51,678 nucleotides of DNA from a virus: the IMG/VR virus record IMGVR_UViG_3300010162_000002. The stretch is one strand, 5' to 3'. The translations under genes were made by a program, and so were the position numbers. Positions 2,847 to 51,678 of this stretch are shown in pieces (the first letter of the stretch is position 1; the number at the start of each line of letters is the position of its first letter). The notes under the pieces were generated by a model. That model was not told the origin of the DNA and did no database searches. It saw only the letters and a program-made list of their open reading frames with translations.

Positions 2847-3432
2847 GTTTATGCCGATAGTGCTTAAAATTAACGCCATTTGGGGTAAGGGCTTTGATGA
2901 AATACGCACCCGGGTTTGGTATGAAATTTTCAGCGGATTAAAGCTGCAGCGATTAGATATGGCTGTATCGGAACTTGGCAGGGAATCAAAGTTCGAGCCC
3001 AGGCCCGCGGAAATCGTCGAAAAATACGAGGAAATCCGACAAAGAGCGAGGAAATCCCAGGCACGCCGAACACGGATTTCTGACCAAAAGATGCCTAAAT
3101 GCTATATTTGCTTGAATGATGGCACTGTGTTTTACGAAAAGACCGTGCCCGACATAGCTAATTACATCGCGCAGTATATGGCAAGATGTACTTGTGAGCG
3201 CGGTAAGGATTTAAGGCGATGGAGTAAACACCAAATAACCAAAGGTATGACCGTTACAAATCCCACGACCAAGGAAGAAGAGAGCATATATTTCCCGGAT
3301 ATTAGCGATGTTTTGACTCTGGAAGAAATCGGAGTGATACAGGCTAAAAATATGGGCAGAAGCACAGAGGCACAGTTAACGGCAGATGTGGCAGCTATGG
3401 TTAAAAAATTACAGGCTGGAGGTGTGGCGTGA
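2833..3432 (+). CDS. replication accessory protein (possible G39P-like helicase loader/inhibitor domain)
   Basis: Sits directly after the initiator with overlapping stop/start. The pattern W..IFSGL...MAVSEL....FEPRPAEI resembles the G39P family. Weak call. Confidence 0.4.
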   Translation: MTLAEFMPIVLKINAIWGKGFDEIRTRVWYEIFSGLKLQRLDMAVSELGRESKFEPRPAEIVEKYEEIRQRARKSQARRTRISDQKMPKCYICLNDGTVFYEKTVPDIANYIAQYMARCTCERGKDLRRWSKHQITKGMTVTNPTTKEEESIYFPDISDVLTLEEIGVIQAKNMGRSTEAQLTADVAAMVKKLQAGGVA

Positions 3433-5918
3433 GCGATTACATGGAATTCTTAAAATCAAAAATAGAGATTGCTCCAGTAAGTGGGTTCGAGGTAAACCCA
3501 GCACAAATCCACTCGACACTAATGCCTCACCAGCGAGATTCAGTCATTTGGGCATTACGAGGCGGGAGACGCGCTATATTTGCGTCGTTTGGACTCGGTA
3601 AGAGCTTGATGCAATTGGAATTTTGCAGGCAAATCATAAGATGTGAAGGCGGTAAATCTCTGATAGTGCTACCACTGGGAGTTCGACAAGAATTTACGCA
3701 TGATGCCGTCAACTTGCTCGGCATGGAAGCTCCGCCTTATGTGCGAAGCATGGCCGAGGTGGTGGAATCTGACGCTGATATATTTATCACTAATTATGAA
3801 CGCGTGCGTGACGGAGATATAGATCCAGCATTTTTTACAGCAACAAGCCTCGATGAAGCGGCAGTACTGCGCTCATTTGGCAGTAAAACCTACCAAACAT
3901 TTTTGTCAAAGTTTAAAGGCATAAAATACAAGCTTGTGGCCACAGCAACACCGGCGCCAAACCGATACAAAGAACTCATCCACTATGCCGGGTATCTTGA
4001 AATCATGGACACTGGGCAGGCTTTAACTCGATTTTTCCAACGCGACAGTACGAAAGCCAATAATCTCACACTGTACCCACACAAGGAAGATGAATTCTGG
4101 CTATGGGTATCAAGCTGGGCACTATTCATCGGCTCGCCGTCAGACCTTGGATATGATGATATTGGATACACATTACCGAACATGGAGGTACGCACACATG
4201 TGTTAAACACAGGGTATTGCCAATCAGTTGACCGTGACGGCCAAATTAAATTGCTAAATGATACCGCGAAATCGCTTTCAGACGCGGCGGCGGAAAAGCG
4301 CAATAGTATTAAATTGCGCGTTGCTAAGGCAAAAGAAATTATTGATTCTGATCCAGGCGCACACTTTATACTCTGGCATGATCTTGAGGCAGAGCGGCAC
4401 GAAATCAAGCGACAAATGCACACTGCCGTTGAAATTTACGGATCAATGGATTATGGAGAGCGTGAGCGGCGTGTTATGGATTTTTCATACGGCAAAACTC
4501 GGTTATTTGCAACTAAAAAGAGTCTATCCGGATGCGGCTGCAATTTCCAGCGACACTGCCACAGGGCAATATTTATTGGCATTGATTATGAGTTTCACGA
4601 TTTTATACAGGCATGTCACCGTATTTACCGCTTTTTACAGACGGAGCGCGTTATTATTGACATTATTTACACAGAGGCGGAGGAGCCTATATATCGTTCA
4701 TTGATGGAAAAATGGGAGCTACACAAAACCCAACAAGATAAGTTGCGCAATTTAATATTGAAATATGGTTTGTCTGGGAAAGCACAGGCGGAACGAATGG
4801 CCAGAAGCATAGGTGTGAAGCGAGTGAAGATAAAAGGGCAGGGCTTTACGGCCGTCAACAATGATTGCGTGGACGAAGCGGCGCGCATGGGTGAAAACAG
4901 TGTGGATTTAATTCATACATCAATTCCATTTTCGAACCATTACGAGTATACGCCAAGTTATAACGATTTTGGACATAACGAAAATACTGTGCGATTTTTT
5001 GAGCAGATGGACTATCTTACACCGCAATTGCTACGGATACTAAGACCCGGACGTGTAGCGGCAATTCATGTAAAAGATCGTGTTCTATTCGGAAATACCA
5101 CAGGGACGGGAATGCCAACAATAGAACCTTTTCATGTGAATTGTATTAATCATTATATGCGACATGGATTTCAGTATTTTGGCATGATAACCGTAGTAAC
5201 AGATGTTGTTCGAGAAAACAACCAGACATACCGGCTTGGATGGAGTGAACAGTGCAAGGACGGCTCAAAAATGGGCGTGGGTTGCCCAGAGTACATTCTA
5301 CTTTTCCGCAAGTTACCTACTGACACATCAAAGGCTTATGCGGATATGCCGGTGTCAAAAACTAAAGACGAATACACGCGAGCGCAGTGGCAAATTGATG
5401 CACATGGTTATTGGCGTTCTTCCGGCGATAGGCTACTTACTAAAGATGAATTAACGAAAATACCTGTTTCTAACCTGCAGGCGGCATATCGCAAGTATAG
5501 CCGAGATTCAGTTTACAACTACTCCGAGCATGTGGAAATTGCAAAGGAGTTAGACAAAAAAGGAAGCCTACCCGCCACATTTATGGTTGTTGCACCGGGC
5601 TCTTGGTCTACAGATGTATGGGATGACATTAATCGCATGAAAACGCTAAATACGAATCAGAGTCGCCGCAGGCAACAGCTTCACGTGTGCCCTTTGCAAA
5701 TAGATATAGTGGACAGAATTATACATCGCTACTCAAATCCAGGTGATTTAGTGCTAGATCCATTCGGCGGAATAGGTACCGTTGCATTACAGGCTCTAAA
5801 GGCTGGGCGCAAAGGGTATACGATAGAACTTAATGGTGATTATTTCCGCGATGCCGTGGGATATTTGCAGGGGTATGAGGACGAGATATCACAACCTACG
5901 CTATTTGATTTTATTTAG
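3429..5918 (+). CDS. SNF2/DEAD-like helicase fused to an N6/N4 DNA methyltransferase (829 aa)
   Basis: Helicase motif I FGLGKS and motif II DEAAVLRS. C-terminal MTase motif IV HTSIPFS and motif I LDPFGGIGTV (N6_N4_Mtase-like beta-class order). Confidence 0.85.
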   Translation: MSDYMEFLKSKIEIAPVSGFEVNPAQIHSTLMPHQRDSVIWALRGGRRAIFASFGLGKSLMQLEFCRQIIRCEGGKSLIVLPLGVRQEFTHDAVNLLGMEAPPYVRSMAEVVESDADIFITNYERVRDGDIDPAFFTATSLDEAAVLRSFGSKTYQTFLSKFKGIKYKLVATATPAPNRYKELIHYAGYLEIMDTGQALTRFFQRDSTKANNLTLYPHKEDEFWLWVSSWALFIGSPSDLGYDDIGYTLPNMEVRTHVLNTGYCQSVDRDGQIKLLNDTAKSLSDAAAEKRNSIKLRVAKAKEIIDSDPGAHFILWHDLEAERHEIKRQMHTAVEIYGSMDYGERERRVMDFSYGKTRLFATKKSLSGCGCNFQRHCHRAIFIGIDYEFHDFIQACHRIYRFLQTERVIIDIIYTEAEEPIYRSLMEKWELHKTQQDKLRNLILKYGLSGKAQAERMARSIGVKRVKIKGQGFTAVNNDCVDEAARMGENSVDLIHTSIPFSNHYEYTPSYNDFGHNENTVRFFEQMDYLTPQLLRILRPGRVAAIHVKDRVLFGNTTGTGMPTIEPFHVNCINHYMRHGFQYFGMITVVTDVVRENNQTYRLGWSEQCKDGSKMGVGCPEYILLFRKLPTDTSKAYADMPVSKTKDEYTRAQWQIDAHGYWRSSGDRLLTKDELTKIPVSNLQAAYRKYSRDSVYNYSEHVEIAKELDKKGSLPATFMVVAPGSWSTDVWDDINRMKTLNTNQSRRRQQLHVCPLQIDIVDRIIHRYSNPGDLVLDPFGGIGTVALQALKAGRKGYTIELNGDYFRDAVGYLQGYEDEISQPTLFDFI

Positions 5919-5928
5919 GAGGTGTCAC

Positions 5929-6087
5929 ATGCCATGCAGATACAGTGATCTTGGAATGGATGTATGCACTCGATGTGGAAATTGTGAGGATTTAACGCCG
6001 GACGAATCACGAACATGTCAACATACTAATTCAAATAATTTAGCATACGGCCATGACCAATGCGAAAACTGTGGTGCGTGCGAATGA
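5929..6087 (+). CDS. small Cys-rich (zinc-ribbon-like) protein, 52 aa
   Basis: ATG at 5929 with aggagg RBS at 5917-5922. Contains CTRCGNC...CENCGAC. The track ORF start at 5833 overlaps the methylase and was not used. Confidence 0.45.
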   Translation: MPCRYSDLGMDVCTRCGNCEDLTPDESRTCQHTNSNNLAYGHDQCENCGACE

Positions 6088-6141
6088 ATGACGTGATTCG
6101 CGCATTTCCACAGCGCAAAGAAGCCATGGGAGGTGTAGTAG

Positions 6142-7014
6142 TTGGCATCAAAAGACAAGATTAATAAAGCTATATTACGCATCCAGCAAGGATATGAGAT
6201 GTCACGACATGCCGGGAACACGCTTATTTGTGCGTATAGCGGCGGTAAGGATTCGGATGCATTGTTAGACCTTTGCTTAAAATCCGGCGTACCATTTCGT
6301 GCTGAACATAACCACACTGGCATTGACGCGCCGGAAACCGCCTATCATATCCGGGATGTATTTTCAGGGCTAAACATGCCAACAGCTATAAATATGCCCG
6401 AAATGTCAATGTGGCAATTGATCGTGAAAAAGCTTATGCCGCCAACCCGGCGCGTTAGATATTGTTGTGAATATTTAAAGGAGCGGAAATTCGATAACCA
6501 GCACTTACTTATGGGGGTTAGATGGGCAGAGAGTAACAGCCGTAAGTCGCGTGGCACACATGAAAAACTATCTGCTAAAAGGGAAGATCGGATAATTTAT
6601 CAAGACGAAAATGACAATAATCGCAAATTAACAGAAATATGCATGAGAAACAACAGGGTTGCAACTAATCCGATTATTGATTGGACAGACAAAGATGTTT
6701 GGGAGTATGTCCGAAATAATAATCTAAAAATGAATCCTCTGTATGAATGCGGCTTTAGGCGTGTAGGGTGCATAGGTTGCCCAAATGCAGGTAAGCATGT
6801 GCTTGCCCAATTTGCACGATATCCCAAATATAAGGTCGCATACATCCGAGCATTTGACAAAATGATTATCGCGAAAGTCAAAAGCAGGGAAAGGCGCAGA
6901 AAGCCACAGGATGTGAGCGAAATATGGCAATCTGGGGAGATGCTTTTCAATCGGTGGACTAATCCCAAATTTGACCCACAACAGTTAACTTTAGAGGATA
7001 TGGAGGTGCTTTAA
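6142..7014 (+). CDS. PAPS reductase / PP-loop ATP-pyrophosphatase family protein
   Basis: PP-loop SGGKDS near the N-terminus and C-terminal Cys pairs (CGFRRVGCIGC). Typical phage PAPS-reductase-like architecture. Confidence 0.8.
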   Translation: MASKDKINKAILRIQQGYEMSRHAGNTLICAYSGGKDSDALLDLCLKSGVPFRAEHNHTGIDAPETAYHIRDVFSGLNMPTAINMPEMSMWQLIVKKLMPPTRRVRYCCEYLKERKFDNQHLLMGVRWAESNSRKSRGTHEKLSAKREDRIIYQDENDNNRKLTEICMRNNRVATNPIIDWTDKDVWEYVRNNNLKMNPLYECGFRRVGCIGCPNAGKHVLAQFARYPKYKVAYIRAFDKMIIAKVKSRERRRKPQDVSEIWQSGEMLFNRWTNPKFDPQQLTLEDMEVL

Positions 7015-36442: not shown

Positions 36443-36471
36443 TTGACAATCTATTTAAAATATGATAATAT
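36443..36471 (+). promoter_or_regulatory. sigma-70 promoter TTGACA-17-TAATAT
   Basis: Read directly. Lies 32 nt upstream of the 36503 start. Confidence 0.6.
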
Positions 36472-36502: not shown

Positions 36503-37204
36503 TTGGGAATACTTACAGCGCCGATGTTGTTTGCGCAAGATAAGCATAATCGTGGGAATCGCAACTGTTTCTATTGCGCAGCGTCTTGCGATGAAACACA
36601 CACAACAAAAGATAATGTCGGCGAGAATTTCACAAATTTAGATATCGTGAAATGTCCGGACAGTCTTTATGTATGCGTAGGGTGCAATATGGTTTTTGGC
36701 AATGGCACGTGCGATATACACATGCTTGATGGCGGTTTCAAGGCATTTGAAAAACCTTCGCCCACCGTTGCTCCACGGATGTATTCGTGGTTTCTTACAG
36801 TCGAAAAGAGGCTGGCTTTTACAAAAGCACACATCGGCCTAATTAGGGAGATAATAATCGCCCCACCGGATCCCCCGTTCAGTATAATAATCTCCGATAG
36901 TGGACAGAAAAACCTTATTTTCCGCGCCCCGATTGCTAATAATAGGGATTATTTTCCAGTGATGCTTGAAGAGGCTATTATTGAAGTGGCACCCCAACTA
37001 TTAAAAGAAAGGCTCACCCTCTGCGGTAGTATATCCGCAAAAATAGGCAAGCCTGTCTTATCTGAAAAGGGCAAATATCAAATGGGCCATTGTATTTCTG
37101 CCAAGAAAGTCGGGGTTTTTAATGAATTGATGGAGTGGGAGAAGATAAAAGAGGAGCCATTATCAAAGTTGGCAGCCTGGCTGGCACCTCCAAAAGAAAA
37201 ATAG
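36503..37204 (+). CDS. C4 zinc-finger protein (233 aa); possible Csf1-like large-subunit analogue
   Basis: CFYC...C and CVGC pairs in the N-terminal 60 aa. Monocistronic, between its own promoter and a terminator. The Csf1 link is inferred only from size, the zinc finger and the neighbourhood. Confidence 0.5.
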   Translation: MGILTAPMLFAQDKHNRGNRNCFYCAASCDETHTTKDNVGENFTNLDIVKCPDSLYVCVGCNMVFGNGTCDIHMLDGGFKAFEKPSPTVAPRMYSWFLTVEKRLAFTKAHIGLIREIIIAPPDPPFSIIISDSGQKNLIFRAPIANNRDYFPVMLEEAIIEVAPQLLKERLTLCGSISAKIGKPVLSEKGKYQMGHCISAKKVGVFNELMEWEKIKEEPLSKLAAWLAPPKEK

Positions 37205-37219
37205 CCCTAATAGGGCTAT
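37201..37219. terminator. bidirectional hairpin terminator
   Basis: Palindrome ATAGCCCTAATAGGGCTAT flanked by an A-run and a T-run. Confidence 0.6.
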
Positions 37220-37224
37220 TTCAA

Positions 37225-37653
37225 TTAATCTGTTTTACTAAGAGCATCCACCCCTGCTGAAAAGATTTCTGACAGCGTTGCGTCTAGTGCATCGGATTTC
37301 GCTTTTACGGCAGCGGGTATCCATGTAGCGATTTGGACTTTGTCATCTTGCGGAAGATTAAAAATTGCCTCATATTCATCCGTGTCCAGCCTTTCTTCTG
37401 CCCATTCCTGGGCTTGGGTAATGGTAATAGGTCGGATTCTGGCCCCTGGACGCGAGCTATGTTGTTCCACTTTCTCCCCATAGGGACTTGCCGCATTCCC
37501 CTCCCCATATATGAAATACTCTCCAGTGATTTTTATGAATAGTATTTCTTGGTACCATTGGTGATCACTGACAGCCGCTGTGGCACAGCTATATGTGGCC
37601 AATTTTTTCGCTGTTGATATGTCATACACCTTGCCTTTGATTATTTTTTTCAT
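37225..37653 (-). CDS. hypothetical protein (142 aa)
   Basis: ggagcc/aagaaggag RBS region. Last gene of a 3-gene leftward operon. Confidence 0.55.
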   Translation of the reverse strand: MKKIIKGKVYDISTAKKLATYSCATAAVSDHQWYQEILFIKITGEYFIYGEGNAASPYGEKVEQHSSRPGARIRPITITQAQEWAEERLDTDEYEAIFNLPQDDKVQIATWIPAAVKAKSDALDATLSEIFSAGVDALSKTD

Positions 37654-37705
37654 GCCAGGCTCCTTCTTTCTAAGTCAATTCCAAGTTGAATCAAGGTAAA
37701 TTTCA

Positions 37706-38077
37706 CTAAATGTCTATACCCTCAAATATTATGCTTTTTACACTATCTACGTATTTAGTTGAATTGATGTCAGTCCCATTTTCCAAGGAAGTCTTGTAAA
37801 ATTCGCAGACATTATCCCACCTATAGTGAAGATGCACATCTTCATCATACCCGCACAGTCTTAACACTTGCTCGATTGCTTTGCAATACCCCTCCATTCT
37901 CGTGTGAATTTTATTTGCCTCATCCATCGCCTCTTCGAAGCTGTCACCAAATGTATAGTCGCTAAAGCCTAATCCTTGTGCATGTCTTTCTGCCGCACTC
38001 TTTAAGTTGTGATACTCCTCTGCACTAACTTGGAATGCGATTGCTACCCCTCTTGTAAATTCGTTGATTTTTAACAT
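37706..38077 (-). CDS. hypothetical acidic protein (123 aa)
   Basis: aaagggga RBS. No motif recognised. Confidence 0.55.
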   Translation of the reverse strand: MLKINEFTRGVAIAFQVSAEEYHNLKSAAERHAQGLGFSDYTFGDSFEEAMDEANKIHTRMEGYCKAIEQVLRLCGYDEDVHLHYRWDNVCEFYKTSLENGTDINSTKYVDSVKSIIFEGIDI

Positions 38078-38107
38078 TTCTAAATCCCCTTTCTGTTGAT
38101 GGTGGAA

Positions 38108-38581
38108 TTATGCAACCTGCCATAATGTGCCGTATTCACATGCAATTTCGTCAATAATCTTTTTTAATTGATCTATTCCGTCTTTACGATATACGCGCAC
38201 TACATCTCCGATTTTTGCCCCTTTAGCCGACACTCCCCAGCCTCCATCGTATCTAACCCAGGTCGCGCTCACAATACCATTGGCTTGATCTGCAACACTT
38301 TTGATTGCGGAGTCAATTTTTACAGAAGCAATTTTCTGGTCGTTTGCTTTATTAAAACTCATCACAAGGCTCAGTGCTGCCATTGCTACGTCAAATGTTT
38401 GCTCTGTAGCTTGCATGTAAGAGATCATTTTTTCAAGGCTTAAGATATCTTTGCGAATGTAGTTTGAAAAATTGTAAGAAATTTTATATGCCGCTTTAAG
38501 TGCTGTGCCGAACTCTGCTCTTGTGGTACAACCTGAATTTTTGTACATTGTCCATGCTAGTGTCATAATTTGCTTTTTCAT
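38108..38581 (-). CDS. hypothetical protein (157 aa); N-terminus resembles that of 47144..47515
   Basis: aagggagag RBS. Shares the pattern IM..AW.MY(K/N)...F..ALK.(A/S)(Y/W) with the first early-operon gene. Confidence 0.55.
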   Translation of the reverse strand: MKKQIMTLAWTMYKNSGCTTRAEFGTALKAAYKISYNFSNYIRKDILSLEKMISYMQATEQTFDVAMAALSLVMSFNKANDQKIASVKIDSAIKSVADQANGIVSATWVRYDGGWGVSAKGAKIGDVVRVYRKDGIDQLKKIIDEIACEYGTLWQVA

Positions 38582-38700: not shown

Positions 38701-39237
38701 ATGCAAATCAGTATGGAAGAATTCCGGCAAAGACTCGCTAGACTAGAGGCCCCAGAAGCAAAATTTGGGGATGCGGAAATTGAAAGAATGCACAAGATCG
38801 GAATCCGACTTGTGAAAGCCCTACGCGCCGTGTATGGGAAGGGGCTTGACCGTCTCACGCTATGGGATCGCATTTCGAATGGCATAATGAATGCTGGAAC
38901 CCGATCGCAAGGCAAGGGCGGTGATTTTTTAGCAAATCTATTAGAATTCGTAAAAGCAGATATCAACATTGCTGTCGGAAACCCCCTGTTGCTAGAGGTG
39001 CATGAGGATATTAAAGCCATGACACCAGAAGAGAAGCGTTTTTTTATCAGGACGTGTATGTCTAGTCGCAGATTGCTATGCCTTGAAGCGAGAGATGACA
39101 TAGAATCGGAGAAAGACGACCTAGCAATGATTCGCAAGCAGATAGGCAAAGAATTTGTCGCAAGAGGGCCAGACAACACCATTGTAGGATTTGATACCTA
39201 TGCAGAACTTAAAAATTGGAGGCAAAACAATGAATGA
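38701..39237 (+). CDS. helical 178-aa protein; first gene of the RAMP/radical-SAM operon (possible Cas11-like small subunit)
   Basis: gaaggga RBS. Predicted all-helical and charged. ATGAATGA coupling to the next gene. The Cas11 analogy rests only on size and position. Confidence 0.45.
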   Translation: MQISMEEFRQRLARLEAPEAKFGDAEIERMHKIGIRLVKALRAVYGKGLDRLTLWDRISNGIMNAGTRSQGKGGDFLANLLEFVKADINIAVGNPLLLEVHEDIKAMTPEEKRFFIRTCMSSRRLLCLEARDDIESEKDDLAMIRKQIGKEFVARGPDNTIVGFDTYAELKNWRQNNE

Positions 39238-40231
39238 GATTAAATTCGCTCGGATTCATGGGATTTTAACATGCCTTTCGCCCCTCACGCATATGGCGGG
39301 TATTTCAGGAAATGAGGCTTTGATAAATCGCCATACGGTAATAAATGGAGGGCAACTGTACGATGTGCCAGTGCTTTCTGGCAATGCTCTTCGACACGTT
39401 CTTGTCCGGGAGCCTGGGGCAGATTTCATATACAATGCCTGTGAATTACATGATAGCCTAAATGTTAACCAAGCATGGTTTATGTATAATGGTGGTAGCC
39501 TTACAGATTCTACTATCAGTGATAATTTAAAGAAAATAGCGGCGATGCAAGAATTGCTGCCTTTATATAGGCTTCTTGGTGGAAGCCTTACGAATCAAGT
39601 ACTTGCAGGCAGTATTCACGTAGGCGTGGGACGGCTTTTTTGTGAAGAAGAGCGAGAAAATCTTGAAAAATTATTACCCCCGAGCTTGGCGGCACTGCCT
39701 ATTAAGATGAGATCTTGCGAGGATTATATCGGCAAATACCAATATACACGCACCGATATCCAAAGGATGCGAGGCATTGCAAAGACTAGCGAAGAATCAG
39801 AAGGTGCCGAAAAGGCTAACCTTATGATTTATAGCGGACAAAATGTCATTGCCGGTGCAAAATTTTACGTGCCATTGACACTTAAAAATATTTCAAAAAT
39901 GGAATTGGGCGCATTTGTTGCGGCGGTAAGTGACTGGCAAGAGTCTAGCGGTACGGTCGGGGGAATGGCGCGTATTGGTCATGGCCAAATGCATTTTGAA
40001 TTCACCATTGAAGGAAAGGATTTCGCCGGAAAACAGCTAGAAAGCGAAGACCTGGCGATGCTCGCAGACAAATACCGAACCTACACTGTGGAGAACAAAG
40101 ATGCTATAAGAGTATGGTTAGATGAGACTTTTCCTGCGAAAAAACCAAAGGCAGTAAAGCCAAAAAGAGATAAAGCAAAGGGAGACACAGAGCAACTTGC
40201 ACTTGATTTTTTTGGGGCAGTTGATGAGTAA
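39230..40231 (+). CDS. Cas7-like RAMP protein (Csf2/Csm3/Cmr4-like), 333 aa
   Basis: Four RAMP-like motifs: IKFARIHGILTCLSPLTH; DVPVLSGNALRHVLVRE (compare the RAMP P.IPGSSLKG.LR motif); LLGGSL..AGSIHVGVG; and the C-terminal Gly-rich loop GTVGGMARIGHGQMHF. ggagg RBS. Confidence 0.55.
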   Translation: MNEIKFARIHGILTCLSPLTHMAGISGNEALINRHTVINGGQLYDVPVLSGNALRHVLVREPGADFIYNACELHDSLNVNQAWFMYNGGSLTDSTISDNLKKIAAMQELLPLYRLLGGSLTNQVLAGSIHVGVGRLFCEEERENLEKLLPPSLAALPIKMRSCEDYIGKYQYTRTDIQRMRGIAKTSEESEGAEKANLMIYSGQNVIAGAKFYVPLTLKNISKMELGAFVAAVSDWQESSGTVGGMARIGHGQMHFEFTIEGKDFAGKQLESEDLAMLADKYRTYTVENKDAIRVWLDETFPAKKPKAVKPKRDKAKGDTEQLALDFFGAVDE

Positions 40232-40572
40232 TGGGGATTGTTGCGAATGAATGCAGGAGTGCAGCAGCACTAGCACGCGAATTAGGCTATGATCGCACCA
40301 CCATCGTTGAATGGATAAAATCCAATAAAATCACAGCAAAAAAAAGACGCACGGATAAATGTCCTTGGCTCATCCATAAAAAATGGTTTCGTCCAGAATT
40401 TATAAATAAACATAAAAAATTCAAGAGAAGGTTATCGTCCTGGACGCGACATGAAATCCGAACATTGCAGTATTACATTAATACCCCTATATCGAAATTG
40501 CTCATACTTCTGCCGAATCGCACAAAGAATGCAATTAAAGTAAAGCGATCAAGAGAAAGGCGTAAACTATGA
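40231..40572 (+). CDS. basic double HTH protein (excisionase/MerR-like N-terminus, Myb/SANT-like C-terminus)
   Basis: AAALARELGYDRTTIVEWIKSNKI and SWTRHEIRTLQYY...RTKNAIKVKR. TAATG and ATGA overlaps with both flanking genes. Confidence 0.55.
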   Translation: MGIVANECRSAAALARELGYDRTTIVEWIKSNKITAKKRRTDKCPWLIHKKWFRPEFINKHKKFKRRLSSWTRHEIRTLQYYINTPISKLLILLPNRTKNAIKVKRSRERRKL

Positions 40573-41258
40573 AGAATCAAGTGAAAAACTATAAAATAAC
40601 GGCATGGATGGCATCTCCCCTTGCCGGAGATCCTCCAATGCTTGACGCTATCCTTGGCGATGAATTAGCGTGTCGTCTTGGCAAGAGACATCACAAAAAA
40701 ACAGGCAGATGGACACCGGCAAATGAAATTGAAGAATTGCCAATACCGCTTTGCTACACCAAAATGCAAAGCAGAAAGATAGTAAACTGCTCTAATCCCA
40801 TAATGCCGAAACCGCAAGCAGAATGGACGGCGAATATTGCAAAAAGATTTAATTCATCAAGGATGGCACTACTAATTGCCCCAGAATATCGCAAGAGCAT
40901 AATGACTGCATCCGGCCCATACAAGTCAAAATTTGACAAAGTGCGCGTACGATTAATCGACCGCGTGTGCTGGTTTGTGCGTGGGGATCGAGAACAAGTC
41001 AATAAATTGCTAAAAGCAATTCACTCTATAGGTGCGCACAGGGGAATAGGATATGGTCAAGTATGGCAGTGGACATTTGACGAAATGGAAGATAATTATA
41101 GTATTTTTGCACCGTGTAATGGTAAAATAGTTTTGATGCGCACATTGCCTAAGGAATGCAATCTCGATAATGTGTGTGGATACCGCAAATCATACGGTGG
41201 CTGGATGCCACCATATTGGCATCCAGCCTTTCAGGCGGAGGTGGCAATTCCGTGTTAA
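40569..41258 (+). CDS. Cas5-like RAMP protein (Csf3-like), 229 aa
   Basis: N-terminal YKITAWMASPLAGDPPMLDAILGDELA and a Gly-rich loop HSIGAHRGIGYGQVW near the end of the core. No catalytic Cas6-like histidine context recognised. Confidence 0.45.
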   Translation: MKNQVKNYKITAWMASPLAGDPPMLDAILGDELACRLGKRHHKKTGRWTPANEIEELPIPLCYTKMQSRKIVNCSNPIMPKPQAEWTANIAKRFNSSRMALLIAPEYRKSIMTASGPYKSKFDKVRVRLIDRVCWFVRGDREQVNKLLKAIHSIGAHRGIGYGQVWQWTFDEMEDNYSIFAPCNGKIVLMRTLPKECNLDNVCGYRKSYGGWMPPYWHPAFQAEVAIPC

Positions 41259-42625
41259 AAATAATGGCATATCAAAATACTGCGTACGCAGGTAGACTTG
41301 GAGAAAAACAGGCAGCAAATAAGTTGGGGACTTATTTTGCAGGATTAAAGGTAATCGTGGATAGCCTTCAAAGAAATGGATATGACGTGGACTGGGGCGG
41401 TTGTGAGGACGTATCAAAGTATAATATAATCCTTGTGAGCATTACATCATCAAAAGACTGGCTTCCATTTCTCGCCGAGCGCGTAAAATGGGGCAAAGGT
41501 ATATATAAAGTGATTGTGGGAGGGGCAGGGGCAATGAATCCTCGCCCCTTTTTGCCGTTCGTGGATTGCTTTGTACTAGGACGCGGCGAGAATCTAATTA
41601 TTGACATTGTTAAAGGGCTAGAGAAAGATGTCCGACACGTAAACGAATCAGTCATATGGTCCAATTTATACAGTAATGATGATGAATACTATTTCCGCCA
41701 AGAGTCTTTATACCCACACAGAGTATTTCTTGATGACGGTGAAACCCATTTAAATAAATTCCAACGAAAAGCGCGCGTATTTGAAGAGAAATCTATGGGG
41801 TGTCCTTATAAGTGCTTATTTTGTGCGTACTCGCATCATCGCAAGCATATTGACAGTACTAAGGGAGATGGGATGTTTCGAGGCGCGATCATTCACGAAT
41901 TGCGCGAAATGTGCATGCTTGATATCATAAGAAATAAAGATAAGATAGATCTTGGAATGCTCCGCATCTGCGCCCTTGATGGAATATCAGAGCGGCTTCG
42001 ATTTAACGCTGGTAAAATGATTAGTCGCGAAAATTTCCGCGAATTCCTTAAAATTATACTTCTTCGCAATAAGAATATGCGATTTAAATTGTATAATATA
42101 GTCGGAATGCCTACAGAGTGCGAAGATGATTACTTTGAATTCATTGAAGATGTAGACTATGTGGACAAAAACACAAGGTCAGGCGCTCATGTACAAATAG
42201 AATTGCATAATACTCCATTTCAGGCAATGCCAGCTACGCCTGCCGCTTGCTGGCCCATGTCATACAGGAATTACAGGGGAATTATTGCCAATACTTTGAT
42301 GAAAGCGAGTGCATCCCAGCGATTAGAGGGCAAGGGAAGGTGTTATGATGGAGATCATTTTACTGTATGTGAAAGTATATATACCGAAACTTTGCCGTCT
42401 ACAGCATTGCAAGCTATTTGCCACAGAGGTACGGAAAAAGATAGTGATAACATCCGGAAGCTTGCATTAAAATGGCACAATTACGACAAGCTTAGCGGCG
42501 AAGCAAAGCTTACTGTGCTAAGTCAGGGGTTTGATTTGAAAACTATCTTCGGAGAGTTTTCAGCAGAGACATTACCGACTCGAAATATCAAGACATATAA
42601 AGATGTATTGACGGCTCGGGCCTGA
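41252..42625 (+). CDS. radical SAM enzyme with an N-terminal B12-binding-like domain
   Basis: CPYKCLFC (CX3CX2C) preceded by a Rossmann-like N-terminal domain (NIILVSITSS...VIVGGAGA). GTG at 41252 lies 10 nt after GGAGGTGG and overlaps the upstream stop. Alternative ATG at 41264. Confidence 0.8.
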   Translation: MLKIMAYQNTAYAGRLGEKQAANKLGTYFAGLKVIVDSLQRNGYDVDWGGCEDVSKYNIILVSITSSKDWLPFLAERVKWGKGIYKVIVGGAGAMNPRPFLPFVDCFVLGRGENLIIDIVKGLEKDVRHVNESVIWSNLYSNDDEYYFRQESLYPHRVFLDDGETHLNKFQRKARVFEEKSMGCPYKCLFCAYSHHRKHIDSTKGDGMFRGAIIHELREMCMLDIIRNKDKIDLGMLRICALDGISERLRFNAGKMISRENFREFLKIILLRNKNMRFKLYNIVGMPTECEDDYFEFIEDVDYVDKNTRSGAHVQIELHNTPFQAMPATPAACWPMSYRNYRGIIANTLMKASASQRLEGKGRCYDGDHFTVCESIYTETLPSTALQAICHRGTEKDSDNIRKLALKWHNYDKLSGEAKLTVLSQGFDLKTIFGEFSAETLPTRNIKTYKDVLTARA

Positions 42626-42663
42626 CTACTCATTTGACTACACTACTACATTTTTGACTACAC
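42623..42663 (+). repeat. three direct TGACTAC(AC) repeats (42623, 42635, 42655); possible integrase arm-type sites
   Basis: Read directly. TTTGACTACAC occurs twice with a 20-bp period. Confidence 0.5.
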
Positions 42664-42698
42664 AAATCGGGTCCATTCTAAGCACTTTGAAGTAAATT

Positions 42699-42735
42699 AA
42701 AACCCCTTGCAAGCGTTGAATTTGCAAAGGGTTTT
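42699..42735. terminator. bidirectional hairpin terminator
   Basis: AAAACCCCTTGCAA-loop-TTGCAAAGGGTTTT (14 bp with one mismatch). Confidence 0.55.
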
Positions 42736-42740
42736 GCTAT

Positions 42741-42787
42741 CGCACGAGAAAGGATTCGAACCCTCGACCCTCTGATCCGAAGTCGTG
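42741..42787 (-). other. attP core: 3' portion of a tRNA-Arg(UCG)-like gene (anticodon loop to acceptor end)
   Basis: The minus strand reads GACTTCGGATCAGAGGGTCGAGGGTTCGAATCCTTTCTCGTGCG. There is no matching 5' anticodon-stem strand or D-arm upstream. Adjacent to the integrase. Confidence 0.6.
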
Positions 42788-42822
42788 CGCTCCTATATGG
42801 AAAGCCAAGTATTCTCAGGCGT

Positions 42823-43959
42823 TCAGGCCTCATTGACTATATCTTGACTACTGGAGATATATGAATCTATCTTATCTGCTGCTCCACCAACTTTGCCTTT
42901 GTCCAAATGCGTGTATATATCCATAGTCATCGCCAAGGTCGAATGCCCTAGTAGATACTGAGCCGTTTTCACGTCTACCCCGGCATAGAATAACATTGTT
43001 GCATACGAATGCCTAAAGATGTGTGGTGTGATATCTGATGGTAAAATCCAGTTATCAGGTGCTCCACCGAGGGCAGTGTTAAGCCCATCTGCTATTTTAC
43101 CCCAAAATCGCCTATACACTGTCACGGTCATTAATTCTCCGGCGGCCGAAGGGAATACAATTTCATCCCTTGCCGTCATCCTATGCGCCTTTAGTGCCAA
43201 GAATAACGCTTCTGGCATGGGGATGTCTCTATTTCCTGCGTCTGATTTTGGCATAGGCTTTATCCATGTTTTATTTCCGTGATTTGTCCATGCTTTACTT
43301 ACTCGCACTGTGTTTGCATCAAAATCAATGTCCGCCCAGTTCAAAGAAAGTGCCTCGCTTCGTCTAAGCCCCGCATACAGTAATACGCAATAGAACGCTC
43401 TTGATTTGGCATCCAGTATGGCGGATTCGAATGCGATTCTTTCACTGTCCTTAATGGCCCTCTTTTTTGGCTTTACCTTTTTTGGTAATTCTATCAGCTC
43501 TGCCGGACTTTTCGCCATTATATTATTTTCAACAGCTCGTCTAAATATTTGCTTAAGCGATAAAGCGGCTTGCTCCGTTGCTCTTGTCAATCCCTTGTTG
43601 CGCATTTCATTTATAAGCCGTTGTACATGAAATGGGCGAATATCCCTTAATTTGATATGGCCCAATGTTGGCACTATATGAACTCTTACCATAGTCTCAT
43701 ACATAGAATATGTTTTGCTGCCCGATCCCATCTTATATGTTCTTAGCCACTCCTGCGCCCATTCTGAGACGGTCATTCCACCATCCTTGACGATTGTGCC
43801 GGTCCCGACCTGTCGCCGCAATTCGGCGGCCTTTTCTTCCAATTCGCGGATAGTTTTGGCGTAAATAGTTTTCCGCTGTGGCTTTCCGTCCGGCTTGACA
43901 CCTATCACTACATGGGTACAATATCGCCCATCTGCACGTTTTTTATATTTTGCTGGCAT
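42823..43959 (-). CDS. int: tyrosine site-specific integrase
   Basis: C-terminal catalytic region with GLRRSE, HIFRHSYATMLFYAG, LLGHSTLAMTMDIYTH. N-terminal SAM-like domain. Confidence 0.95.
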   Translation of the reverse strand: MPAKYKKRADGRYCTHVVIGVKPDGKPQRKTIYAKTIRELEEKAAELRRQVGTGTIVKDGGMTVSEWAQEWLRTYKMGSGSKTYSMYETMVRVHIVPTLGHIKLRDIRPFHVQRLINEMRNKGLTRATEQAALSLKQIFRRAVENNIMAKSPAELIELPKKVKPKKRAIKDSERIAFESAILDAKSRAFYCVLLYAGLRRSEALSLNWADIDFDANTVRVSKAWTNHGNKTWIKPMPKSDAGNRDIPMPEALFLALKAHRMTARDEIVFPSAAGELMTVTVYRRFWGKIADGLNTALGGAPDNWILPSDITPHIFRHSYATMLFYAGVDVKTAQYLLGHSTLAMTMDIYTHLDKGKVGGAADKIDSYISSSQDIVNEA

Positions 43960-47143: not shown

Positions 47144-47515
47144 ATGACATACAACAAATCAGAAATCATGAAAAGCGCATGGAACATGTACAACAAAAGC
47201 CTAGCATCAAAAGCAGTAGCAAAAAGAACAGGCATAACCACATTTGCTTCTGCGTTAAAACTTTCTTGGGAAAATGCAAAATTAAAATCACAAACAAAAG
47301 TAACATCAACAATCGGCTGGGCAAGCATTAGAAGCTTAGCATCTGGTGACACAATCAAAGTAGCACCACCGGGATGCGCGTCGCTTTTCAAAATCAAAAC
47401 AGTAGCAACAATCGAAACATCTGGCAACGGATTTGCAGGCATTGATGTAACTTTCACAGACGGTACAGTAAGAGTATTTAGAAGCTTTGATGTGGTTGAA
47501 CGCCTAGCCGCGTAA
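47144..47515 (+). CDS. first early-operon protein (123 aa), hypothetical
   Basis: aaggagga RBS. N-terminal motif shared with 38108..38581. Confidence 0.55.
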   Translation: MTYNKSEIMKSAWNMYNKSLASKAVAKRTGITTFASALKLSWENAKLKSQTKVTSTIGWASIRSLASGDTIKVAPPGCASLFKIKTVATIETSGNGFAGIDVTFTDGTVRVFRSFDVVERLAA

Positions 47516-51041: not shown

Positions 51042-51578
51042 ATGTTAAAACCTAAGGACTTTACAGGCAGAGAGGTACCGCTTGAGATTATAGAGCAGGG
51101 GCTTAAGGATAGCGATTGGCGTGTACGCAATGCGGCAATGATAGCCTGCCAAGGCAGAGAGGTACCGCTTGAGATTATATAGCAGGGGCTTAAGGATAGC
51201 GATTGGCGTGTACGCAATGCGGCAATGAAGTTGTGGGTCGAAAAAGGAAATGCATATCCACTAATCCGCACAATAGAACCACCGACTACAGTATACAAAA
51301 AATGCCTAGGCGGTATTATCGTGTGCGCAACTATACCTTCGTATGCGCAAATTAGAGGTAGCTACGGCGGCAAATGCAGAGCAAGTGCGGCAATTATAAC
51401 AAGCGTAATCGGCACATATTATGGCGAGTCTATTGGGGTATCGCTTCACGACAAAAAAACGACTTATCGCACTGGCGACGAAGTTGAGATTTCAGATTTT
51501 AATATGAGCGATGCTGAATGTGCGGCCGGATATCATTTCTTTTGCACTGAATATGAAGCAAGGAAATATTATCATTAA
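51042..51578 (+). pseudogene. HEAT-repeat protein gene interrupted by an in-frame TAG at 51180-51182
   Basis: ATG at 51042. Two GREVPLEII(E/*)QGLKDSDWRVRNAAM repeats. The frame continues without shift into track ORF 51225..51578. Confidence 0.55.
51066..51228 (+). repeat. tandem duplication: two 76-nt copies with an 87-bp period, differing at one base
   Basis: 51066-51141 versus 51153-51228 are identical except G51093/T51180, which changes GAG to TAG. Confidence 0.9.
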
Positions 51579-51678
51579 ATTAAATAATTAAAAAAACAAG
51601 AAAGGAGAATCACATGGAAAAAGCAAGGAAATATTATCATTAAATTAAATAATTAAAAAAACAAGAAAGGAGAATCAC
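51566..51678. repeat. terminal copy of the 113-bp segment (= 1-113)
   Basis: Direct comparison with the window start. Confidence 0.9.

Follow-up and report, generated by a model that had tools for sequence, protein, structure and literature searches.

The virus record IMGVR_UViG_3300010162_000002 of IMG/VR, whose complete stretch of 51,678 nt was analysed here (the window), carries a CRISPR-Cas cassette of subtype IV-B in which the place usually taken by the CysH-like protein CasCysH, directly downstream of csf3, is held by a gene for a radical S-adenosylmethionine (SAM) enzyme. What is new is the accessory enzyme, a radical SAM protein, on an otherwise known IV-B effector set. The explanation that we regard as probable, with room for doubt, is that of a phage-borne, array-less IV-B cassette in which CasCysH was replaced by a radical SAM enzyme recruited to the Csf ribonucleoprotein as a nucleic-acid modifier. 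In full text, the literature searched yielded no IV-B, Csf, or CasCysH paired with a radical SAM enzyme, a mention in the supplements of older reviews being possible, and the 2025 classification has no radical SAM enzyme in IV-B context in its main text or supplement (PMC12669027).

Effector genes of the cassette

An earlier note, made from the letters of the DNA, had described a cluster of five overlapping open reading frames (ORFs) on the + strand, here called genes 1 to 5. All five and their junctions (ATGAATGA at 39230-39237, TAATG at 40229-40233, ATGA at 40569-40572, and GTGTTAA at 41252-41258) were found exactly as described, with Shine-Dalgarno-like GGAGG ahead of the ATG of gene 2 and the GTG of gene 5, and every peptide motif quoted for genes 2 and 4 was present. 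The extent of the cluster had to be corrected: since csf1 (36503-37204, + strand) lies outside the region first noted, the module comprises six genes and is split. It encodes a type IV Cas8-like large subunit of 233 aa with a Cys-rich N-terminus, whose match to the PADLOC model typeIV_Cas8 (3.7e-66) spans the full model and which is homologous to the csf1 product of a related cassette (L001, see below). A promoter-like site of its own was found at 36443-36471.

Gene 1 (38701-39237, + strand), noted before as a small helical protein of Cas11-like size, proved to be cas11, the gene of the type IV small subunit (PADLOC typeIV_Cas11, 3.6e-13 and 9.1e-11). Gene 2 (39230-40231, + strand) is csf2, coding for the Cas7 backbone subunit (PADLOC typeIV_Cas7, 3.3e-76; phrog_22746, 4e-67), and gene 4 (40569-41258, + strand) is csf3, coding for Cas5 (PADLOC typeIV_Cas5, 6.2e-38; phrog_34599, 2e-36). 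A profile of 46 Csf2 sequences matched the solved IV-B Csf2 (PDB 7jhy) at 3.8e-9. The structural comparison that the earlier note had suggested for gene 2, a Foldseek search with an AlphaFold2 model (pLDDT 84), returned Csf2 chains of types IV-A and IV-B (8rc3, 7xg1, 7jhy), followed by Csm3 (E 8e-12 to 4e-8, TM 0.5-0.7). Csf3 matched the NCBIfam model cas5_csf3 (2.5e-11, below cut-off) and the Csf3 of PDB 7xfz (0.0047). The assignment of gene 2 to the Cas7 RAMP (repeat-associated mysterious protein) family and of gene 4 to Cas5/Csf3 was thereby borne out, and both the RAMP fold and the Cas7/Cas5 profile matches, on which these assignments had been made to depend beforehand, were found. None of the four Csf proteins is truncated, and Csf2 retains 45 of 45 invariant positions of its family. 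With Pfam and NCBIfam alone, Cas11 and Csf1 went unrecognised and Csf2 and Csf3 appeared only below cut-off, and models of the PADLOC/CasFinder type were needed.

Subtype assignment and absence of CasCysH

Based on its architecture, i.e., Csf1, Cas11, Csf2, and Csf3 without an array, helicase, or nuclease, the module was assigned to subtype IV-B, the layout that the earlier note had named as closest and that shows the same order csf1-cas11-csf2-csf3; its derivation from type IV-B is virtually certain. Neither TRF nor a repeat finder detected a CRISPR-like array in the window, and an Rfam search of it matched no family. When all 68 predicted proteins of the window were scanned with PADLOC, 52 families matched at E <= 1e-5. 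The best 25 of these 52 comprised only the type IV Cas8, Cas11, Cas7, and Cas5 models, BrxP (a 3'-phosphoadenosine-5'-phosphosulfate (PAPS) reductase), an MTase_II methylase, and a capH-like helix-turn-helix (HTH) protein; DinG, RecD, Cas10, Cas6, Cas1, and Cas2 were not found among them, in line with the note, which had reported neither an array nor Cas1/2, Cas6, DinG, or Cas10. The SNF2 helicase-methylase fusion encoded at 3429-5918 is unrelated.

The CysH-like gene of IV-B has been called nearly invariant or strictly conserved (PMC7038947, PMC8175902, PMC12669027). According to the 2025 classification, IV-B typically includes CysH, with a role that is enigmatic (PMC12669027), as it is in the review literature (PMC8175902), and published work treats CasCysH as the main riddle (PMC8175902, PMC7038947, PMC7937560). 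The complete genome studied here holds no cassette-linked CasCysH, i.e., the adjacent cysH-like gene that serves as a criterion of IV-B is lacking. Its only PAPS_reduct protein (6142-7014) is encoded in the pre-terminase region, at a distance of about 30 kb from the cassette and beside a gene for an SNF2-methylase fusion. This protein is BrxP/DndC-like with the PP-loop SGGKDS (phrog_424, 8e-43) and reached 41 bits on a profile from 32 cassette-linked CasCysH sequences, which themselves gave E values of 1e-88 to 1e-110 on a closely related PAPS profile. Based on its distance, its CasCysH profile score, and its membership in a generic phage family, it was rejected as a displaced CasCysH. CasCysH is thus missing, gene 5 fills the place immediately behind csf3, and the CysH partner seems to have been replaced by the radical SAM enzyme.

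Gene 5, the radical SAM enzyme

Gene 5 (41252-42625, + strand) encodes 457 aa with matches to Pfam Radical_SAM_N2 (2.7e-7) and Radical_SAM (1.7e-4), and its GTG start overlaps the stop of csf3 (41252-41258). An exact-sequence look-up of the protein returned no record. The deduced protein comprises a Rossmann/B12-binding-like N-domain, a radical SAM core with a single CX3CX2C motif (CPYKCLFC), and a helical C-domain. In 70 homologues, C180, C184, and C187 are invariant and no other conserved cysteine cluster was found. Its AlphaFold2 model (pLDDT 89.4, pTM 0.89) had MgmA (9ccb) as best PDB match in Foldseek (E 3e-9, TM 0.45), followed by MtaB, MiaB, RimO, OxsB, and AprD4, and a sequence profile of the family found 9ccb (3e-10), RimO, CysS, and TokK.

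Of the earlier description as a B12-type radical SAM enzyme, the CX3CX2C motif stood, and the B12-binding domain was not established: the Pfam B12-binding match is insignificant (E 0.28), and the significant match of the N-domain is Radical_SAM_N2. On the basis of the model, 'B12-type' would describe the fold class of gene 5; a cofactor requirement does not follow from that fold. AprD4, likewise among the matches, has the fold and is not known to use cobalamin. Assignment as a MiaB/RimO-like methylthiotransferase was rejected, as gene 5 has neither the three-Cys auxiliary cluster in its N-domain nor a TRAM domain, its C-domain being helical.

Survey of related cassettes

Relatives of Csf2 were gathered from viral contigs, genomes, and metagenomes, their ORFs were labelled with custom hidden Markov models, and duplicates were removed, leaving 102 cassettes. 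Downstream of csf3, 59 carried CasCysH, eight a radical SAM enzyme (window, L001, L008, L017, L018, L032, L148, and L189), and none both; one held only a divergent PAPS protein, and in 34 this region was cut by the contig end. Hence, one slot is recurrently occupied by either CasCysH or a radical SAM enzyme: in 67 informative cassettes the two never occur together after csf3, which bears out the earlier view of the radical SAM gene as sitting in the accessory slot. The position between csf2 and csf3 is taken by a radical SAM gene in L032, L217, and L218, and by CasCysH in L044. Arrays were found in none of seven other radical SAM loci.

In a neighbour-joining tree of Csf2, the radical SAM cassettes were spread over at least three clades, with CasCysH cassettes in between. 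The Csf2 of L001 is 70% identical to that of the window, and this cassette has two radical SAM genes of other lineages, while L008 (Csf2 49% identical) harbours an orthologue of the window enzyme (52-54% identity) after csf3; L010 and L011 (Csf2 52-53% identical) carry CasCysH. What related elements share is the unit csf1-cas11-csf2-csf3 plus a radical SAM gene; the five-gene order that the earlier note had proposed to look for in them is unique to this phage.

Some cassettes displayed additional genes. In L001 (9687-11075) and L017 (8618-10021), a second radical SAM gene with a Pfam B12-binding domain (5e-8 and 1.7e-8, respectively) precedes the clade-B gene described below, so that some IV-B variants carry two radical SAM enzymes. 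L217 (9651-13263) has two more Radical_SAM genes and an N6_N4 methylase gene within 6 kb of its csf2-radical SAM-csf3 arrangement, and L010 (9669-10100) a gene for a 143-aa HD-domain protein (Pfam HD, 7e-5) between csf3 and CasCysH. Many close relatives (L013-L016, L048-L050, L136-L143) stem from a few JGI samples, Ga0123353, Ga0123355, Ga0123356, and Ga0082212, and others from metagenome-assembled genomes named Nt197P3, Cf509, and Gsp477. From these names alone we take their origin to be termite gut, an anaerobic habitat that, if the origin is right, would suit oxygen-sensitive radical SAM enzymes.

Two lineages of radical SAM enzymes and the ParB_N family

A tree of the radical SAM enzymes revealed two cassette-linked lineages. 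Clade B (L001b, L017b, L018, L032, L148, and L189) is monophyletic, and all six copies from the first survey lie inside cassettes. Searching a database with L001b brought up 216 proteins of at least 46% identity, several of them on contigs that also have Csf2 matches, and four of four further members, picked for their long contigs, were adjacent to Csf3. Clade A, consisting of the enzymes of the window and L008, branches beside a large phage clade whose genes stand in the order ParB_N-radical SAM-TerS-TerL, csf genes being absent. The clade-B enzymes are homologous to gene 5 (22% identity over 343 aa, E 1e-20). Two separate radical SAM lineages were recruited to cassettes, with the window representing the rarer of two independent recruitments. 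L008 (8836-10658) has two paralogues of the window type, one after csf3 and the other close to the end of the contig, following a ParB_N-like gene, possibly a snapshot of the recruitment event.

Several points weigh against a recruited modifier. In the family of the window enzyme, 52 of 81 distinct copies have the order ParB_N-radical SAM-terminase with no csf genes within 6-8 kb, indicating that such an enzyme can act without Csf proteins. All trees are neighbour-joining trees without support values. The cassette is interrupted twice, by three genes in reverse orientation and by an HTH gene (see below), which could be a signal of decay. Furthermore, the physical coupling of the Csf complex to the enzyme is putative, as is cobalamin binding by gene 5, and substrate and chemistry cannot be read from the sequence.

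Some of these points would also be expected if gene 5 were a chance neighbour, i.e., an ordinary ParB_N-type phage radical SAM gene beside a CysH-less, partly decayed IV-B remnant in a cargo hot spot near attP. The genomic context of most of its clade, the split-off csf1, the inserted HTH gene, and the integrase-adjacent site, which is typical for morons, fit this explanation. However, the orthologous order csf3-radical SAM recurs in L008, a different phage with only 49% Csf2 identity, the second radical SAM lineage is almost always adjacent to Csf3, and not one of the informative cassettes combines a radical SAM enzyme with CasCysH. The overlap of the gene 5 start codon with the csf3 stop and the full-length Csf proteins, with every invariant residue of Csf2 retained, also speak against it, and we consider a chance association improbable.

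A match to a ParB_N protein was absent from the window even at E 10. Elsewhere, the cassettes of L024, L033, L036, and L037 (e.g., L036, 9875-12882) adjoin the gene of a longer PAPS reductase (370-440 aa) that is paired with ParB_N, an arrangement that recalls IbrA/IbrB, and in L033, L036, and L149 a ParB_N gene follows CasCysH. As a general neighbour of the cassettes, ParB_N was demoted, being in view at only 8 of 59 CasCysH loci.

Proposed working of the module

In the recruited-modifier explanation, Csf1, Cas11, Csf2, and Csf3 would assemble a Cas7/Cas11 filament on RNA, as demonstrated for one distant IV-B homologue only. The resulting ribonucleoprotein would be a nucleic-acid-binding platform that recruits the radical SAM enzyme in functional replacement of CasCysH. 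By radical chemistry derived from SAM, the enzyme would then modify the bound RNA or a nucleic acid that the complex engages, the most plausible reaction being C-H functionalisation of the methylation type at a base or sugar. The phage might thereby gain counter-defence or control of gene expression of its host or of competing elements, a role that we infer. Functional coupling of the enzyme to the Csf module is likely. Nucleic-acid modification as its activity is about evenly balanced, leaning slightly against, and methylation specifically is rather unlikely. For a IV-B complex, two publications describe a Csf2/Cas11 filament on heterogeneous, non-CRISPR RNA, and their authors propose that CasCysH is recruited to modify nucleic acid (PMC7937560, PMC8175902).

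Alternatively, the Csf proteins may work alone as an RNA sponge, an anti-CRISPR decoy, or an IV-A-like transcriptional silencer free of nucleases, and the radical SAM enzyme may separately modify phage DNA against restriction, much as PAPS-reductase or ParB modules could do, both being co-located counter-defence cargo. Sequestration of CRISPR RNA (crRNA) has been raised for IV-B (PMC7038947), and IV-A and IV-B, which lack nucleases, apparently inhibit transcription, IV-A at any rate (PMC12669027). The siting of this radical SAM family with ParB_N just ahead of the packaging genes in other phages and the PAPS-ParB_N pairs adjoining some cassettes are also compatible with separate cargo. It leaves unexplained, however, why the place after csf3 is nearly always held by either of two enzyme classes but not by both together, and why a radical SAM clade is confined to Csf neighbourhoods; the decoy idea was judged unlikely by its own authors (PMC7038947). 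Because unrelated, mutually exclusive enzymes were swapped repeatedly, the Csf complex can be argued to deliver an enzymatic modification and not to be a mere RNA sponge. We hold independent cargo to be unlikely as a whole.

The module might also perform crRNA-guided interference with crRNAs borrowed in trans from host arrays, with the radical SAM enzyme as target-damaging effector. Type IV-A3 acquires spacers in trans, and one viral IV-B locus has a mini-array (PMC10541130). Against this stand the lack of any array, Cas6, or repeat-like element in the window and in seven other radical SAM loci; moreover, IV-B correlates negatively with other CRISPR systems, and a purified IV-B complex bound non-CRISPR RNA (PMC7038947, PMC8175902). 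This makes borrowed guides very improbable.

Beyond the recruited modifier of the window, IV-B Csf complexes in general may be RNA-scaffolded or RNA-guided nucleic-acid modifiers with an exchangeable module, either CasCysH with PP-loop adenylating chemistry or a radical SAM enzyme, the latter recruited at least two times independently; we put this forward tentatively and with considerable doubt. If true, the radical SAM form would count as a variant at subtype level that has not been described, comprising hundreds of phage members, many of the sampled ones apparently from termite gut, as inferred from sample and genome names. Still wider, a nucleic-acid-binding or targeting module joined to a modifier could be a general scheme of mobile elements. 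The idea is attractive because in phages ParB_N, too, has the same radical SAM family and PAPS-reductase-like enzymes as partners, and it is speculative because ParB_N is in view at so few CasCysH loci.

Of all CRISPR-Cas subtypes, IV-B is the one least understood, and the swap, which recurs in many uncultured phages, gives a new clue to its role. The partner slot is open to a mechanistically unrelated class, radical SAM enzymes instead of PP-loop ATPases, which provides a second, chemically distinct experimental handle on IV-B function and connects the accessory enzymes of IV-B with the ParB_N-associated radical SAM enzymes of phages, a large uncharacterised family.

Insertions inside the cassette

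Three orphan ORFs (142, 123, and 157 aa; 37225-38581, - strand) split csf1 from cas11. None of them matched Pfam, PADLOC, or PHROG models, and in L001, which lacks this insert, csf1 and cas11 abut; the block is probably an inserted moron block and no part of the conserved module. A terminator-like hairpin (37198-37222, scored on the - strand) with an 11-bp stem followed by a T run lies between csf1, whose 3' end it overlaps, and the convergent insert, so that it could terminate both, and a promoter-like site on the minus strand (38655-38627) flanks the block on the other side. The N-terminus of the ORF at 38108-38581 resembles that of the ORF at 47144-47515 (MxxxKSxIMxxAWxMY), a resemblance that suggests a small paralogous phage family.

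Between csf2 and csf3, gene 3 (40231-40572, + strand) is inserted, which had been described as a basic double-HTH protein. Its basic character is evident (31 K/R vs. 8 D/E), and it has an HTH_17-like N-terminus (Pfam HTH_17, 5e-4, below cut-off) and a C-terminus that is Myb/SANT-like by eye. The sole homologue among the cassettes (32% identity, E 3e-16) directly follows the radical SAM gene of the distant cassette L216, and none was detected in the remaining loci. Gene 3 was therefore rejected as a conserved member of the module; it may be an occasional accessory, a regulator, or a DNA-binding adaptor.

Phage genome and surroundings of the cassette

The window begins and ends with an identical direct repeat of 123 nt (1-123 and 51556-51678; a 65-nt unit about 1.9 times per end), indicating a complete, circularly assembled or terminally redundant genome of about 51.55 kb. 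Based on its Pfam content, i.e., integrase, ERF, HNHc_6, amidase, and tail and capsid proteins, the phage is a temperate siphovirus. A DNA search with the window against GenBank phages resulted in no match. At the protein level, Csf2 matched only Skermania phage SPI1 (23% identity), gene 5 had no match, and clade-B enzymes gave only matches of 21-24%.

Downstream of gene 5, a probable attP (42626-42822), beside which the earlier note had placed the cassette, adjoins the gene for a tyrosine integrase (42823-43959, - strand; Pfam Phage_integrase). Repeats of the octamer TTGACTAC lie at 42625-42663 and again near 42844, and the segment 42740-42800 (- strand) is similar to the 3' portion of a tRNA (GGTTCGAATCC), as an attP would predict; ARAGORN called no tRNA. 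In several relatives, the cassette is located ahead of the terminase genes instead of beside attP and the integrase. Directly upstream of the packaging genes of the window, a gene for an SNF2-helicase/N6_N4 DNA methylase fusion of 829 aa (3429-5918) is followed by the PAPS reductase gene, and both (3429-7014) may form a separate DNA-modification module. Finally, a tandem duplication of 87 nt (51065-51228, 1.9 copies, 98-99% identical) was found in apparent coding sequence.

Comparison with known systems

In fold and in sequence profile, the best match of gene 5 is MgmA, the B12-dependent methyl-coenzyme M reductase glutamine C-methyltransferase (9CCB), at about 15% identity and a TM of about 0.45; in both, a Rossmann-like domain at the N-terminus precedes the radical SAM barrel. 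From its context, a protein glutamine is unlikely as the substrate of gene 5. The same succession is found in the B12-binding-domain radical SAM enzymes OxsB, AprD4, CysS, and TokK, as well as in MiaB, MtaB, and RimO, the second-best fold matches, some of which act on RNA. However, the three-Cys auxiliary [4Fe-4S] cluster and the TRAM domain of the latter three are missing from gene 5. The members of the ParB_N-linked phage family are 36-46% identical to gene 5 over the full length and agree with it in domain layout and conserved residues. While these are preceded by ParB_N and followed by the terminase genes, gene 5 has csf3 upstream and attP and the integrase downstream.

Among the CasCysH cassettes of phages and prophages, L010, L011, and L019 belong to the same Csf2 clade as the window (Csf2 46-53% identical) and are identical to it in gene order and slot position, but encode a protein of about 240 aa with the PP-loop ATPase fold where the window encodes the radical SAM enzyme of 457 aa. 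With the IV-B complex of Mycobacterium sp. JS623 (PDB 7JHY), the window has in common the four effector genes and their order, including Cas11, the lack of an array, Cas6, an adaptation module, a helicase, and a nuclease, and the location on a mobile element. Differences were identified in the csf1 of the window, which is set apart by the inserted block, in the HTH gene between its csf2 and csf3, and in the accessory enzyme, which is CysH-like in JS623 and replaced in the window by a radical SAM enzyme.

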